A DNA stretch of 32,000 nucleotides, from contig NZ_CP097765.1 in the NCBI RefSeq assembly GCF_023585785.1, forward strand, positions 570,001 through 602,000, given 5' to 3'. A program made the position numbers and the translations under genes. The DNA comes from Blochmannia endosymbiont of Camponotus modoc (GTDB lineage: Bacteria > Pseudomonadota > Gammaproteobacteria > Enterobacterales > Enterobacteriaceae). The notes under the pieces are model-generated. The model was given only the letters and a program-made list of their open reading frames with translations, made no database searches and had not been told where the DNA came from. This document shows, piece after piece, positions 3,540-18,248 of this stretch; position 1 is the first letter of the stretch; every line of letters begins with the position of its first letter.

Positions 3540-4928
3540 TTATTTTTTATTTTTTAATCGCTTCCAATTTAAAATAGAAAATTGTCGTATTCTACTAATA
3601 ATAGTTTCATTAGCTGGCACATCTCGAGTTACTGTAGTTCCGGCTCCAATAGTTGCATTTTTTCCAATAGTAATTGGAGCTATCAGATGACTATCAGCTC
3701 CAATAAAAACATCATCACCAATAATAGTTTTATGTTTCTTGATGCCATCATAATTGCAAATAATAGTGCCGGCTCCGATATTTACTTGATTACCAATTTC
3801 TGCATCACCTAAATAACTAAGGTGTTTAACCTTGGATTTCTCACCCAATCGAGTATTTTTTATTTCTACAAAATTTCCCACATGACTTTTTTCTTTTAAT
3901 TCAGTTCCTGGTCTCAACCGTGCAAATGGCCCAACTTTGCTTTGGAAACTTACTGTTGTATTTTCAATTATTGAAAATGGGTATATCTCTACATCATCTT
4001 CAACTATCGTATCTTTCAATATACAACTTGCTCCTATTTTAACTCTATTCCCCAAAGAAACATGCCCCTCAATGATCACATTGATATCAATGTACACATC
4101 CTTCCCATGTACTAATGTTCCTCTTAAATCAAACCTATTTGGATCAATAATCATCAATCCTGATGATAATAAACATCGTACTTTTCTTTGTTGATATTGT
4201 TTGTCTAAATAAACGAAATCTGATTTACTATTTACTCCCATTATTTCAAATGTATCATCAGGACACATGGTATGTATAATGTAACCTGATTGATGAGCTA
4301 TCTGAATTATATCTGTTAAATAAAATTCATTTTTTGACTTATGAGTTGTTAATGTGCTTAACCAACGCTTTAAATGATCAGAAATAGCAATAAAAATACC
4401 AGTACTGACTTCTTTAATTTTTTTTTGATCATCATTAATGATATCATCATGTTCTATGATGCTAACAACGCTCCCTTCTTGGTTTCGAACAATACGCCCA
4501 TATCCTTTTGGATTAGGTAGTGTAGCAGTTAACATACTTATATCACATTGGGATTTAATGACATGCAATCGTTGTAATGTTTTATGAGAAACAAAAGGAA
4601 CATCGCCATATAAAATAAGAACTTCTTCGTTATCACTGATGATAGGTAACACTCTCCGAACAGCATCTCCAGTCCCAATAAGATCATGTTGCAATATCCA
4701 ATGTACAGGAATTTTGTATTGATCCGTATTAATTTTTTTTATTATTATTTCTCCTTTATATCCATGTACCACATATATGGAGCTAACACCTACTTGTATT
4801 ACAGAATCAATCAAATGTTGTAACATAAACTTACCACCAATTTGGTACAACACTTTTGGTGTATCAGACAACATTCTATTACCTCTACCGGCAGCAAGGA
4901 TAATCGCGCTGAAATTAATATACGACAT
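3540..4928 (-). CDS. glmU: bifunctional GlcNAc-1-P uridyltransferase / glucosamine-1-P acetyltransferase GlmU
   Basis: The N-terminal motif is ILAAGRGNRMLSDTPKVL. The C-terminus carries left-handed beta-helix hexapeptide repeats. It lies directly downstream of atpC, as in E. coli. Confidence 0.95.
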   Translation of the reverse strand: MSYINFSAIILAAGRGNRMLSDTPKVLYQIGGKFMLQHLIDSVIQVGVSSIYVVHGYKGEIIIKKINTDQYKIPVHWILQHDLIGTGDAVRRVLPIISDNEEVLILYGDVPFVSHKTLQRLHVIKSQCDISMLTATLPNPKGYGRIVRNQEGSVVSIIEHDDIINDDQKKIKEVSTGIFIAISDHLKRWLSTLTTHKSKNEFYLTDIIQIAHQSGYIIHTMCPDDTFEIMGVNSKSDFVYLDKQYQQRKVRCLLSSGLMIIDPNRFDLRGTLVHGKDVYIDINVIIEGHVSLGNRVKIGASCILKDTIVEDDVEIYPFSIIENTTVSFQSKVGPFARLRPGTELKEKSHVGNFVEIKNTRLGEKSKVKHLSYLGDAEIGNQVNIGAGTIICNYDGIKKHKTIIGDDVFIGADSHLIAPITIGKNATIGAGTTVTRDVPANETIISRIRQFSILNWKRLKNKK

Positions 4929-10790: not shown

Positions 10791-11636
<846 letters not shown>

Positions 11637-11661
11637 TTATAAATATTTTACAATGTTCCTG

Positions 11662-11677
11662 TGTAATGTACATTACA
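11662..11677. repeat. 16-bp perfect palindrome TGTAATGTACATTACA in the atpB upstream region
   Basis: I verified it base by base (pairs 11662/11677 through 11669/11670). It lies 59-74 nt upstream of the atpB start codon. Confidence 0.7.
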
Positions 11678-12272
11678 GCCTCGATATACAACTTGTCGCT
11701 AACGTGTCAAATAAGTCCAAAATCATTATTATGCATAACTTACAATGATGTTGTATTCGAGAAGAATAACAGTGCCTGCATCAACTTTAAAAAGTTAGTA
11801 CTAATAGAAAATAATAAGAACACTCCCTCTTTTCACACAATCATATACTAATGCAATAAAAGAGAATTAAAAAATGGCACTATGAATTAATTAGTAAATT
11901 TCACATAATATATTACAACTACAGAAACAAACATACGACTGAACTATAGTTTAATGTAGGAAAATAATTTATCTTATAATTAATAACCACTAATGCAACT
12001 AAAAACTCAGTATAATCCTTTTTTCAAAAAATTCAAAGCGTAAAATTTAGATACATATCAACAACCGTATAATATTAAAACAAATACCATACATAACAAA
12101 CCATTAAAATAGTACAATTACTATTATTATCTCTATATAAAACTGTTATTGGAAAAAACATAAATATACCACAATTTACACGTCCAACTCTCTCCATATA
12201 GTAGCGATCACAAACACCCCATATAGGGATCAAATAATCTTGATTAAATAGAAAAATCCATTATTCTCTAGA

Positions 12273-14171
12273 TTAGAATGTATTGTATCCTAATAAACCT
12301 TGTTTTTTTAACCAAACCAATAAATTAGAAATAGCTGCAGGAGTTATACCGGAAATGCGAGAAGCCTGTCCAATAGAATAAGGTTTATAATTATTAAGTT
12401 TATCGATAACCTCCTTAGATAATCCAGAAACAATATTGAAATCTATATCAGTCGGTAACAATGTATTTTCATTGTAAATATGTCTTTTTATTTCTTCTTG
12501 TTGATGACGAATATAACCTTCATATTTTATTTGAATTTCAATTTGCTCGAATACTTGACGATCCAATACAGATGGACTAAAAGTACTTAGTTGAGATAAC
12601 TTTGTGTAATTAATTTCTGGCCTTCTCAACAGATCTTCACCATTTGCTTCATGTGTTAACGGTGTTTTAAGAAAATTATTTAACTGTGCAACATCTGCAC
12701 TATACGGGGAAATATAAGTGTTACGTAATCTCTGACGTTCTTTTTCAATATTTTCTTTTTTGCAACAAAAAGCTTTCCACCGTGATTCATCTATCAAACC
12801 TAACTGCCGCGCGGTTTCGGTTAATCTTAAATCAGCATTATCCTCACGTAAAGACAGACGATATTCAGCACGCGAAGTAAACATACGATAAGGTTCTTCT
12901 GTTCCATGCGTACAAAGATCATCTACAAGCACCCCTAAATATGCCTGATCTCTTCTAGGATACCATCCTTCTTTATTTTTGGAAAATCTAGCTGCATTAA
13001 TTCCGGCTAATAATCCTTGGGCAGCTGCTTCTTCATAACCAGTAGTACCATTAATTTGACCAGAAAAAAACAATCCAGAAATAATTTTACTCTCTAATGT
13101 TAACTTTAAATCACGAGGATCAAAAAAATCGTATTCAATAGCATAACCCGGCCTAACTATATCAGCATTCTCTAATCCCTGGATTGATTTAATCATTTGC
13201 ATTTGCACACAAAAAGGTAAACTAGTAGAAATACCATTAAGATATACTTCAGGTGTTGTCAAACCTTCAGGTTCTAAAAAAATTTGATGAGCATTACGAT
13301 CTGAGAAACGAGTTATTTTGTCTTCTATAGATGGACAATATCGAGGTGCTATTCCTTTTATTAAACCTGTATACATAGGGCTCTGATGTAAATTTGATCT
13401 AATTATTTCGTGGGTTTTATTATTAGTATGGGTAATATAACAAGGCATCTGCGTAGGATGTAGTTTTGTAGATCCTATAAATGAAAACACAGGAATGGGA
13501 TCATCACTATATTGTGCGCATAAAGAATCAAAATTTATCCCTTTGGTATGCACACGAGGAGAAGTACCCGTTTTTAACCGACTAACTTGCAAAGATAACT
13601 CTTTCAATCGTTCTGATAACAATGACGATGACTCCGAATCTCCAGATCGACCTCCTCTAAAGTTATTCATCCCAATATGAATCTTGCCATTGAGAAAAGT
13701 TCCGGTTGTCAACACTACAGACGTACCACTAAATTTCATTCCTAATTTTGGAGTAATTACTCCAACAATCCTGTTCCTCCTAACTATTAAATCTTCTACT
13801 GATGCCTGAATAACCAACAAAAATTTTTGATATTCAAGAACATTACGTATTGCCCGTCGATATAATATTTTGTCTGCCTGAGCACGTGTTGCTCTAACAG
13901 CAGCTCCTTTGCTACTATTAAGTACTCTAAATTGAATTCCCGATTGATCGATAGCATAAGCCATCGATCCACCCATCGCATCAATTTCTTTCACTAAATG
14001 TCCTTTTCCTATACCACCAACGGCCGGATTACAAGACATCTGTCCAAGAGTATCAATATTATGAGTAATCAAAAGCGTATTGCATTGCATTCTAGCAGAA
14101 GCCAAAGCTGCTTCTGTCCCAGAATGGCCTCCTCCAACAACAATAACATCAAAATGAGTGGGATAGAACAT
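12273..14171 (-). CDS. mnmG: tRNA uridine-5-carboxymethylaminomethyl modification enzyme MnmG (GidA)
   Basis: The FAD-binding N-terminus is [22 protein letters not shown], followed by [29 protein letters not shown] Shine-Dalgarno sequence lies 7 nt before the ATG. Confidence 0.97.
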
Positions 14172-14220
14172 ACATCAACCTCATCACATGACCAACACAA
14201 CTCCAACAAGAACGATCCCT

Positions 14221-14252
14221 AAAATAAAAATAGAAAGAAACTTTTTTGTTTC
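14221..14252 (-). terminator. weak hairpin plus U-rich tract between the GC island and the mnmG Shine-Dalgarno sequence (possible terminator or attenuator)
   Basis: The minus strand reads GAAAC-aaaaaa-GTTTC (14252..14237), followed by TTTCTATTTTTATTTT. The stem is only 5 bp. Confidence 0.2.
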
Positions 14253-14260
14253 AATTTAAT

Positions 14261-14392
14261 TCCACACCGCAACTACCAAACGAGAACCCGTCCACGCTGC
14301 GCAGCCGCGTTCGAAACAAGAACGCCTCGCCAACAACTCTTATGTACTTTGCTACACATATACGTGTATGGTCATGGCCGTTGGCCGAACAT
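14261..14392. other. GC-rich palindrome-dense island of unknown function (candidate structured RNA, mnmG leader or origin element)
   Basis: G+C is 70 of 130 nt over 14261-14390 and 33/50 (66%) over 14281-14330, against very AT-rich flanks. It contains the palindrome GCTGCGCAGC (14296-14305). It also contains three hairpins: GCGTTC-N7-GAACGC (14307-14325), TACAC-N6-GTGTA (14353-14368) and GGCC-gtt-GGCC (14376-14386). Confidence 0.5.
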
Positions 14393-14399
14393 TTTAACA

Positions 14400-14428
14400 A
14401 TTATATTTAAAAAAGTCGAAAAATTCAA
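14400..14428 (-). promoter_or_regulatory. candidate sigma70-type promoter reading toward the GC island and mnmG
   Basis: On the minus strand, TTGAAT (14428..14423) is followed by a 17-nt spacer and then a perfect TATAAT (14405..14400). The predicted start near 14393 is at the right edge of the GC island. Promoter-like hexamers are common in AT-rich DNA, so this call is tentative. Confidence 0.3.
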
Positions 14429-14794
14429 TGAAAAGAATAGATTAAATTATCTGTTTGTTAAAAATAATTTGAAAATAATATTGATTACTGTATGTGATTA
14501 GGATTGTATTATTGAGGATCGTTGTAGTAGTATGTAAAATTTAAAATAAAAATTTGGAAACAAGTTATTATTGTTTATTAATTTTTCTTAATAACTAAAC
14601 CGATGGAAACACTTGAATTAACATTTTAAGTTGTGTTACTATAGAAGATGGGTTCATTTTATTTAGATAGTAAATGCATGTGCGTTTACTATACCATTCC
14701 ATATTAAATAAACAAGTAGTTTTATGATCGGGATTAATATACAGTCATATGTTGTAGTTAAAGATTATGAAAAATTAATAATATTTTATATTAC

Positions 14795-14868
14795 AGGCTT
14801 GTAGCTCAGGCGGTTAGAGCGCACCCCTGATAAGGGTGAGGACGGTGGTTCAATTCCACTCAGGCCTA
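14795..14868 (+). tRNA. tRNA-Ile (anticodon GAU)
   Basis: AGGCTTGTAGCTCAGGCGGTTAGAGCGCACCCCTGATAAGGGTGAGGACGGTGGTTCAATTCCACTCAGGCCTA is nearly identical to E. coli tRNA-Ile(GAU). The cloverleaf arms all pair. The 3' flank is TCA, so CCA is not encoded. Confidence 0.95.
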
Positions 14869-15204
14869 TCATGAATTGTGATGTATGTAATTAATAGATC
14901 ATGAGAAATGTTCACTAGAATTTATATTCTATTTATGTTTGTATCTGCGTATATTTGATAAATCACTATAAACTATGCGTTAACTATGTTAAATATATGA
15001 TTTATAAATTATCCGTGATACTTGGATAGTGATTTTTATTTTTTGTATTTTACTAAATACGTGTTGAAAAAAAATTAATTTTATAATTATGGATTCCATC
15101 TTCATGAAGGATAGTGGGAATTTGTGATATGTATATAGGTAAAATAAACAATCTGAAACTAAATAGATTTAGAAGATACGTATACATATTAAGGTCACGA
15201 CATT

Positions 15205-16098
15205 ATGCCAATTCGGGTATTAAACAAATTGCCTGCGATAAAAATTTTACAGAATGAAGATGTTTTTGTTATGCAAAAATCACGCAATACTTTTAAAGAA
15301 CAAAGTTCTTTAAAAGTATTGATTCTTAATTTAATGCCAAAAAAAATTGAAACGGAAAATCAATTATTACGTTTGTTATCAAATTCTCCCTTACAAATTG
15401 ATATTCAATTATTGCGCATAGATGGTCATGTTCCTAAAAACACACCTGTTGAGCATTTAAACAACTTTTATTGTAGTTTTTTAGATATCCAATATAAAAA
15501 CTTCGATGGTTTGATCGTAACTGGTGCTCCTTTGGGATTAATTAATTTTGAAAATATAACCTTTTGGCCTCAAATTAAGCAATTATTTTTATGGGCACAA
15601 GAGCATATTAATTCGATATTATTTATTTGTTGGGCGGTACAGGCAGCTTTAAAAGTACTATACAATCTTCCTAAATTTACCCGGAAGCATAAATTAGTAG
15701 GAATTTACCAACATAATACTATAAGTTCACATGCACTTTTAACAAAAGGATTTGATGAAAAATTTTTAGCGCCTCACTCTCGTTATTCGGATTTTCCTAA
15801 AGATGTAATTTATCGGAACACAGATTTAGAAATTTTAGCAGAATCTGATGAAGCAGGTGCATATTTGCTTATTAGTCAAGACAAGCGTTTAATATTTATA
15901 ACTGGACATCCAGAATATGACGCGATGACTTTATCTCAGGAGTATTATAGAGATTTAAAATTAGGATTAAATCCGATGCTACCAGATCATTATTTTCCTC
16001 AAGACAATCCTAATTTAGTTCCTAAGATCAGTTGGAGAAGTCATGCGTATTTATTGTTTGCCAATTGGCTGAATCATTATGTACAAAAAATGTCATAA
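15205..16098 (+). CDS. metA: homoserine O-succinyltransferase
   Basis: The N-terminus is [49 protein letters not shown] is almost identical to E. coli MetA. Confidence 0.96.
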
Positions 16099-16592: not shown

Positions 16593-18248
16593 GTGAAAAA
16601 TATAAATCCCATTAGTACACAAGCTTGGCAACACCTCAAACAACATTTTAACGATATGAAGAGCATATCAATTAACGATTTGTTCAATCAAGATAAATAT
16701 AGGTTTGCTCATTTCTCTAAAACATTTAATAATGAAATTTTAGTGGATTATTCAAAAAACTTAATCACGAACGAAACTATTATTAAACTAATATCTTTAG
16801 CTATTGAATGTGATCTGATAGAAGCCATTTCAGATATGTTTCATGGTGAAAAAATTAATCGCAGTGAAGATCGTGCTGCATTGCATATAGCTTTAAGAAA
16901 TATAAAAAATACACCAATTTTAGTAGATGGATCCAACGTAATGCCACAAATAAATGCAGTACTAAATAAAATGAAACAATTTTGTAATCGGGTTATTCAA
17001 GGTAATTGGACAGGTTACACGGATAAAATAATTACAGATATCGTTAATATAGGTATTGGAGGTTCCAATCTTGGGCCTTATATGGTAACTGAAGCATTAA
17101 AACCATATCGAAATCATTTAAATATGCATTTTGTTTCTAATATAGACGGCACGCATATTTTCGAGACATTAAAAAATTTAAATCCAGAAAATACACTATT
17201 TGTAATAGCGTCAAAAACTTTTACTACGCAAGAAACTATGACCAATGCGTTTAGTGCACGTAACTGGTTTTGTAAAGCTACTTCTAATGCACAACATGTG
17301 TCGAAGCATTTTATAGCATTATCCACAAATACCATAGAAGTGCGTAAATTTGGCATTGATCCATCAGAAAATATGTTTAAATTTTGGGATTGGGTAGGAG
17401 GGCGTTATTCATTGTGGTCATCAATTGGTTTACCGATAATGCTATCGGTGGGAGTAAGCAATTTTGAACTATTGCTAACTGGAGCTCATGACATGGATAT
17501 GCATTTTCATAATACACCGTTACATGAAAATCTACCAGTAATTCTAGCGCTGATTGGCATTTGGTACAATAATTTCTTTCAAGTAGAAACTGAAGCCATT
17601 TTTCCTTATGATCAATATATGCACCGTTTTACAGCATATTTACAACAAGTAAATATGGAATCTAACGGAAAATGTGTAGATCGCAATGGATGCCCTATTA
17701 TATATCAGACTGGTCCTATTATATGGGGAGAACCTGGAACTAATGGACAACATTCATTTTATCAATTGCTTCATCAAGGTACTAAAATGGTCCCATGTGA
17801 TTTTATCGCACCAGCAATTAGTCATAATCCTATGTCTGATCATCATGAAAAATTAATATCAAATTTTTTTGCTCAAACTAAAGCCTTGGCTTTTGGAAAT
17901 ACACGTTCAACAGAAATGCAAAAATATGTAAAATTTAAAAAAAATTACAAATATGAACAATGTGTGGTTCCTTTTAAGTTATGTAAAGGAAATAATCCTA
18001 GTAATTCTATTTTAGTCAAAAAAATTACTCCTTATACTTTAGGGGCTTTGATTGCTTTATATGAACATAAAATATTTACGCAAGGTATTATTTTCAATAT
18101 TTATACTTTTGATCAATGGGGGGTGGAATTAGGAAAACAATTGGCTGACAGTATTTTACCAGAATTAAAATATGAAAATATGATTTCTAAAAATCATGAC
18201 AGTTCAACTTATGGTTTAATAGATTGTTACAAATCTTGGCGTAGTTAA
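16593..18248 (+). CDS. pgi: glucose-6-phosphate isomerase
   Basis: A GTG start gives [12 protein letters not shown], matching E. coli MKNINPTQTAAW. The conserved blocks [29 protein letters not shown] and [14 protein letters not shown] are present. Confidence 0.96.

Follow-up and report, generated by a model that had tools for sequence, protein, structure and literature searches.

A GC-rich island upstream of mnmG in the Blochmannia endosymbiont of Camponotus modoc is probably a weakly constrained part of the mnmG leader

The Blochmannia endosymbiont of Camponotus modoc has a genome of 790,674 bp, and a 32-kb stretch of its chromosome (the window, meaning the whole of the DNA that was analyzed) carries an unusual GC-rich island (14261..14392) upstream of mnmG (gidA), which is the subject of this report. 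The mnmG coding sequence (12273..14171, minus strand; Pfam GIDA, E = 1.4e-163) is followed on the same strand by atpB (10791-11603) and then by further atp genes. On its upstream side is a 623-nt spacer (14172-14794) that reaches to a solitary tRNA-Ile(GAU) gene (14795-14868, plus strand; found by both Rfam and ARAGORN), beyond which lie metA (15205-16098) and pgi (16593-18248), both on the plus strand. The MnmG and MetA proteins encoded in the window are 100% matches to the Camponotus modoc Blochmannia proteins URJ26186.1 and URJ26187.1, respectively.

The compositional anomaly is real and is confined to this one place. Positions 14261-14390 are 53.8% G+C and a core at 14281-14330 reaches 66%, compared with 21% in the flanking spacer (14393-14794), and the only 100-nt stretches of the whole 32 kb with at least 50% G+C lie within 14240-14395. 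The plus strand is C-rich (33 C and 14 G over 14261-14340), such that the island is G/T-rich on the sense strand of mnmG. A first-pass annotation, made from the letters of the sequence, had described this composition together with a set of motifs, all of which we recover in place: a perfect 10-bp palindrome, GCTGCGCAGC (14296-14305); three hairpins, with arms GCGTTC and GAACGC (14307-14325), TACAC and GTGTA (14353-14368), and GGCC and GGCC (14376-14386); TCCAC cores at 14261 and 14291; and the 10-mer AACAAGAACG, which occurs at 14205 and 14315 and is the sole direct repeat detected.

The island also coincides with a change in strand bias, which the same annotation had placed upstream of mnmG. 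The sign of the GC skew flips between 14 and 15 kb when the window is scanned in 1-kb bins, and cumulative G-C reaches its minimum at 14363, at the island's promoter-side edge. Both agree with the origin prediction published for Camponotus Blochmannia, in which dnaA is missing and the skew-predicted origin adjoins mnmG (PMC4389277).

The orthologous region, running from pgi through metA, the tRNA-Ile gene, the spacer, and mnmG to the atp genes, was compared between the window and nine other Blochmannia, a set that leaves out B. pennsylvanicus, B. herculeanus, and two other C. modoc strains; the record of B. floridanus (L001) begins at the mnmG ATG. The loci are ranked here by the identity of their MnmG proteins to that of the window, which is 96% for L081 (B. 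chromaiodes), 94% for L089, 89% for L084, L085, and L091, 84% for L083 (B. vicinus), 83% for L086, 79% for L088 (B. ocreatus), and 73 to 75% for L092, L093, and L094.

The island is bounded on one side by a sigma-70-type promoter on the minus strand (14400..14428), with a -35 hexamer TTGAAT (14428-14423), a 17-nt spacer, and a -10 hexamer TATAAT (14405-14400). This site, already noted in the first-pass annotation, is the top promoter match of the region (10/12), and transcription of mnmG is predicted from it to start near 14393. The pattern TTGAAT-16/17-TA(T/C)AAT is also present in L081, L089, L084, L083, and L086, and the promoter is thus kept in at least six Blochmannia species; L093 has a similar site, and L088 and L092 have no promoter match. 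On the other side lies the Shine-Dalgarno sequence of mnmG, GAGG (14179..14182, minus strand), positioned 7 nt ahead of the ATG (14171-14169) and retained in the same five species. The segment from the predicted start to the start codon (14172..14393, minus strand) would form a 5' untranslated leader of ∼222 nt with the island inside it, and leader lengths counted after the -10 hexamer range from 112 to 235 nt across the species, with 228 nt in the window.

Between the island and the Shine-Dalgarno sequence is a hairpin, GAAAC-6-GUUUC, with a U-rich tract (14221..14252, minus strand). Both had been noted in the first-pass annotation as following the island, and both are present, although the hairpin is weak and is not a credible terminator, a terminator scan of 14100-14900 having returned 0 sites. 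Its stem is lost in L081, and the entire segment is missing from L089. With a conserved promoter on one side of it and the Shine-Dalgarno sequence and ATG of mnmG on the other, the island is most simply read as the middle of the mnmG 5' leader, extending to its promoter-proximal end. RNA polymerase would start near 14393 at the conserved sigma-70 promoter, and transcription would run leftwards via the island to the Shine-Dalgarno sequence and ATG; judged from the promoter, transcription as mnmG leader is the most likely fate of the island. One half of a proposal in the first-pass annotation, that the element is either an mnmG 5' leader or a structured small RNA (sRNA), is therefore retained, and the other half is not upheld, since no fold, covariation, or RNA family was found for it (see below).

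Conservation across the spacer is strikingly uneven. With gaps counted, the promoter is 96% identical to that of the window in L081 and L089, 81% in L084, and 76% in L086, and the spacer upstream of it is 80%, 78%, 67%, and 51% identical in the same four genomes; the corresponding values for the island are 66%, 44%, 26%, and 31%. The island has the lowest identity of the spacer segments and so is the fastest-changing part of the spacer, changing by substitutions and many small indels and doing so faster than the neighboring A/T-rich sequence. The alignment of the window with L081 illustrates this, with 46 of 48 promoter positions identical, 85% identity in the upstream spacer, and 82% identity plus 23 gap columns in the island, dropping to 73% in the 66%-G+C core. 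Third codon positions of mnmG are 88% identical between the same two genomes, and a blastn comparison of the island with its adjacent leader (14221-14400) gives 69% over 183 nt. More distantly, the site of the island is taken up by A/T-rich sequence in L084, L083, L088, L092, L093, and L094, and this is unalignable in the more distant species. No reading frame is kept between species across the island.

The leader of L089 is 112 nt long versus 228 nt in the window, and the ∼115 nt that are lost include the 3' half of the island and an A/T segment. Over their final 27 nt the leaders of L089 and the window agree at 24 positions, and the short leader is thus accounted for by an internal deletion; a MAFFT alignment that placed the Shine-Dalgarno end of L089 on the middle of the island was rejected given this match. 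What remains of the L089 leader (about 3889-4000) is extremely rich in G and T (37% G, 9% C). Two independent Logan assemblies end inside the leader, 159 nt (L087) and 60 nt (L090) upstream of the mnmG ATG, and these breaks may reflect assembly failure induced by repeats or polymorphism. The first-pass annotation had reasoned that a GC-rich spacer in so A/T-rich a genome is probably under selection, an inference that fails because no part of the spacer is less conserved than the island and because ∼115 nt of leader have been lost in a sister species.

The individual motifs are as poorly kept as the island around them. All four named stems are lost from L081 and L089 without compensatory changes: in L081, GCTGCGCAGC has become GCTGC-CGAC, GCGTTC...GAACGC has become GAGTTC...GGATGT, and GGCC..GGCC has become GGTC..GGAT. 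Conservation of the mnmG-upstream spacer with compensatory substitutions in its stems, to which the first-pass annotation had looked for support, is not what the related genomes contain. The fourth stem, TACAC-ATATAC-GTGTA (14353..14368), has ATATATATATGTATATGCGTATATATG at the orthologous position in L081, and in L086 a (TATG)n microsatellite occupies the leader there (about 3830-3875), and this hairpin is therefore a simple repeat of alternating TA/TG that has degenerated. In Blochmannia, simple repeats of the multimeric kind have been documented as hot spots for indels (Williams and Wernegreen 2012, PMC3268670), and the TA/TG repeat seen at this site in L081 and L086 resembles the hypervariable intergenic simple-repeat regions reported there, with which the island region also shares its richness in indels and the concentration of variation in non-coding DNA. 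It differs from them in its central core, which does not consist of a simple repeat and is rich in G+C, not in A/T, and TRF detected no tandem array in the island.

Nor is the number of palindromes and hairpins in the island unusual for DNA of its composition. When the island is shuffled 2,000 times by mononucleotide, one 10-bp palindrome turns up by chance with P = 0.09, and the observed counts of 5-bp and 6-bp hairpins are reached with P = 0.13 and P = 0.11, respectively. The density of such motifs, which had been offered as a signal, is unremarkable, with shuffles reaching the observed counts at P values of 0.09 to 0.13.

Taking these observations together, we put the probability at about two in three that the island belongs to the untranslated 5' leader of the transcription unit comprising mnmG and the atp genes. 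Read in this way, it is an ordinary, weakly constrained leader of unusual composition, without sequence-specific or fold-specific function, and is neither a structured RNA nor a recognizable origin element; its palindromes and hairpins, products of chance or of simple repeats, are confined to this single genome. That G outnumbers C reflects the strand asymmetry normal for non-coding sequence along this replication arm, positive G-C skew being general on the mnmG strand, with values of +0.29 to +0.56 in the mnmG-atpB spacer (used as a control) at seven loci. The raised total G+C is a lineage-restricted compositional peculiarity that could come from a local mutation or repair bias beside the replication start, or from weak selection on composition.

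The setting resembles that of the gidA/mnmG leader beside oriC in the Enterobacterales, with the same gene at the same place relative to the GC-skew switch and a sigma-70 promoter pointing away from the (inferred) origin. Unlike the gidA/oriC region of the Enterobacterales, it has no DnaA boxes, no dnaA gene, and no sequence similarity to Escherichia coli, and the leader in the window is far longer, at ∼220 nt compared with the roughly 110 nt that separate the gidA ATG from oriC in E. coli.

Several observations weigh against so plain an account of the leader, and all of them concern its G+C content. At 53% G+C the island is too rich for neutral sequence in a genome with spacers of 21 to 27%. 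When 18 substitutions are polarized using L089 as the outgroup, 11 are GC>AT and 7 are AT>GC, with 5 and 6, respectively, in the window lineage, whereas simple decay predicts a ratio of roughly 4:1 in favor of GC>AT (binomial P of 0.04 to 0.13 for all 18 and of 0.01 to 0.03 for those in the window lineage; the counts are small and alignment-dependent). The island may, by this measure, not be obviously decaying.

Furthermore, the G+C content of the leader varies with the skew switch. The five genomes with a switch in the spacer have leader G+C values of 0.43 (window), 0.41 (L081), 0.46 (L089), 0.30 (L084), and 0.35 (L086), with 0.23 to 0.27 in the control, the mnmG-atpB spacer of the same genome, and the five without a switch have 0.24 (L083), 0.17 (L088), 0.15 (L092), 0.23 (L093), and 0.18 (L094), with 0.13 to 0.24 in the control. 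In these latter five (with mnmG at 4001, 4001, 10001, 6646, and 9647, respectively) no skew sign change is seen at the metA-mnmG spacer, and the mnmG sense strand of L092 has negative skew in its non-coding DNA, as in a lagging strand. The difference between leader and control is +7 to +20 percentage points in the switch genomes and -3 to +2 in the others, a complete separation of the two groups (Mann-Whitney P = 0.008 and Spearman 0.75 over ten genomes, uncorrected for phylogeny). The MnmG tree is ladder-like, so that only two or three independent contrasts exist among these ten genomes. That leader G+C tracks the skew switch hints at more than drift, and the pattern is compatible with the R-loop primer that the first-pass annotation had proposed or with some origin-linked mutation or repair bias.

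The best-surviving alternative, which we nonetheless consider unlikely, is that the island is an origin-linked compositional element of dnaA-less symbionts, with selection acting on composition and not on sequence. In one version, a G-rich transcript from the mnmG promoter would form a persistent RNA:DNA hybrid on its C-rich template and so prime or open the chromosome for replication; in another, the GC-rich block would bound an A/T-rich unwinding region. The associated proposal, that the G+C-enriched, G-skewed mnmG leader is part of the replication start and has decayed to A/T-rich sequence wherever the origin has left mnmG, we would likewise regard as improbable. In B. vafer and B. floridanus, the spacer between yibN and hldD is taken as the site of the relocated origin. 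These ideas draw on the skew sign change within the spacer and its minimum at 14363, on the placement of the skew-predicted origin beside mnmG in Camponotus Blochmannia without dnaA (PMC4389277), on the surplus of AT>GC changes in the window lineage, and on the excess of leader G+C, at +0.07 to +0.20 in the five switch genomes and about 0 in the other five. The excess is absent from the non-switch genomes even though four of the five keep a positive skew on the mnmG sense strand (the exception being L092), and it is absent despite a matching promoter in L083 and a similar site in L093. L083 also separates L086 from the crown clade on the MnmG tree, such that the joint pattern of G+C and switch needs more than one change.

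Set against this, no G-cluster R-loop initiation zone was found in any of the ten species under QmRLFS-type rules, which call for three runs of G3+ or two of G4+ within 10 nt; G3+ runs number only two in the window, and the maximum number of G residues per 100 nt is 37 there and 41 in L081. In L089 the skew switch persists although half of the island is gone, L084 and L086 are enriched only modestly, and the ten genomes, standing on a ladder, supply few contrasts. By itself, divergent transcription could shift the skew locally at the promoter. In E. coli, initiation that depends on R-loops requires both RecA and PriA, at least one of which is reported missing in each dnaA-less insect symbiont, making this route reportedly unavailable to them (PMC1472245). 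In its organization the island does resemble the ColE1 RNA II and mitochondrial CSB-type primers, where a promoter gives rise, at an inferred replication start, to a transcript richer in G than its template. It differs from them in having no clusters of G runs, no conserved sequence, and no conserved fold, and in the deletion of half of it in a sister species.

A second alternative, also improbable in our view, is that the island is a decaying GC-rich remnant, either a fragment of a tRNA, rRNA, or other gene or a short insertion or templated duplication, acquired in the ancestor of C. modoc Blochmannia, B. chromaiodes, and L089 and now eroding. Its G+C content is that of stable RNA genes in such genomes, a solitary tRNA-Ile gene lies 400 nt away, and the 10-mer AACAAGAACG is common to the island and the Shine-Dalgarno-proximal part of the leader. 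The 66%-G+C core (∼40 to 50 nt) has no alignable counterpart in L084 or L086, and the rapid, indel-rich evolution of the island is as expected of unconstrained G/C-rich DNA under A/T-biased mutation. However, no similarity to tRNA or rRNA was detected even at a permissive Rfam threshold (E ≤ 10), and the polarized changes are not dominated by GC>AT.

The search for a source or a second copy of the island was similarly unproductive. No counterpart is present in 5,426 E. coli genomes, a plasmid search with the island gave only chance matches of 30 to 50 nt, an exact 24-mer from the core does not occur in the metagenome collection, and a search of metagenomes with the conserved promoter pattern gave no match. 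A blastn search with 14221-14400 against the window and 94 fetched loci matched only the orthologous sites of L081 and L089. This single-copy status in the window and the fetched loci led us to reject a dispersed GC-rich palindromic repeat of the REP, RPE, or mitochondrial GC-cluster type. Two open reading frames that span the island (49 and 54 aa) have no Pfam match, and a small protein or leader peptide was set aside as well, the reading frames not being kept in L081 or L089.

Far less probable is a structured sRNA or cis-regulatory leader, such as an attenuator or riboswitch-like element, with the palindrome and hairpins as its stems. The promoter at the edge of the island, the weak hairpin and U-tract that follow it, and the retention of the first ∼20 nt of the leader (AAAUGUUCGGYCAACGG) in the three closest species would suit such an RNA, and the minus strand of the island folds slightly better than its shuffles (z = -1.5). 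But the z-scores against dinucleotide shuffles are -1.20 for the 229-nt leader, -1.54 for the minus strand of the island, and -0.22 for the plus strand; none is significant, and folding is no better than in the shuffled controls against which the first-pass annotation had expected it to stand out. RNAalifold applied to the leaders of the window, L081, and L089 gives a consensus of only -6.5 kcal/mol with a covariation term of +0.23, and thus no covariation.

At gathering thresholds, Rfam 15 finds only the tRNA-Ile gene in the whole window, and ARAGORN likewise reports tRNA-Ile alone, with no tRNA or tmRNA in the spacer. Permissive Rfam searches (E ≤ 10) of 14150-14800 and of its L081 orthologue return only unrelated eukaryotic families with E ≥ 1.3, scoring 9 to 18 bits versus thresholds of 50 to 127, and the families differ between the window and L081. 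Known RNA families (tmRNA, RNase P, 6S, signal recognition particle RNA, tRNA, riboswitches, and leaders) were rejected as candidates on this basis, which bears out the earlier remark that the island is not recognizable as tmRNA, RNase P RNA, 4.5S, 6S, or a tRNA. With every named stem broken and uncompensated in L081 and L089, no terminator, and half of the element deleted in L089, the comparative data in practice refute the structured-RNA reading.

Least probable of all is a protein-binding origin or operator element acting in DnaA-box-like fashion through the 10-bp palindrome or the TCCAC repeats, a reading that the perfect palindrome and the two TCCAC cores 30 bp apart at the skew switch had suggested in the first-pass annotation but that is already contradicted by lack of conservation, since no palindrome survives in L081 or L089 (the 10-bp palindrome and the GGCC pair are both missing). 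A 10-bp palindrome occurs in 9% of shuffles, neither spacer flanking mnmG has a TTWTNCACA box, and Camponotus Blochmannia have no dnaA (PMC4389277). A DnaA-dependent oriC was itself rejected as a candidate: there are no DnaA boxes (TTWTNCACA) in 14172-15204 or 11604-12272 and hence no box cluster in these spacers, the seven in the 32 kb compare with 5.8 expected, and dnaA is reported missing from Camponotus Blochmannia (PMC4389277).

Other features of the region are of note in their own right. An A/T-rich block on the plus strand of the metA-side spacer, ATTAGGATTGTATTATTGAGGATCGTTGTAGTAGTATGT (14497-14535), is well conserved in the window, L081, L089, L084, and L086, all of which are skew-switch genomes, even the distant L086 sharing about 21 of 24 positions, and it is unrecognizable in L083 and L088. 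It overlaps a promoter-like sequence on the same strand, TTGAGG-17-TAAAAT (14512-14540), and may be either the promoter of tRNA-Ile and metA or an element truly associated with the origin; its conservation far exceeds that of the GC-rich island. The tRNA-Ile(GAU) gene stands isolated between the mnmG spacer and metA and is seen at the same place in the aligned stretches of L084, L088, and L089; in E. coli, tRNA-Ile(GAU) is housed in the spacer of rRNA operons.

On the far side of mnmG, the mnmG-atpB spacer (11604-12272) is non-coding and ∼670 nt long, has a G+C content of 27%, and shows a skew of +0.30 in the mnmG sense. A spacer of similar length (583 to 713 nt) is present in 6 of the 10 genomes, including all of the close relatives. 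In free-living Enterobacterales, rsmG (gidB) and atpI lie between mnmG and atpB, and eroded gene remnants could be present in the Blochmannia spacer.

As it stands, the island is of little significance, being a lineage-specific and weakly constrained part of the mnmG leader. What interest it keeps lies in the question of how replication starts in insect endosymbionts that lack dnaA (PMC4389277, PMC1472245), for which the coincidence of leader G+C with the skew switch across ten genomes offers a cheap, testable lead that can be pursued with existing genomes and reads. Should the coincidence hold up under phylogenetic control and mapping of the origin, DnaA-independent initiation in these symbionts would for the first time have a sequence feature tied to it.

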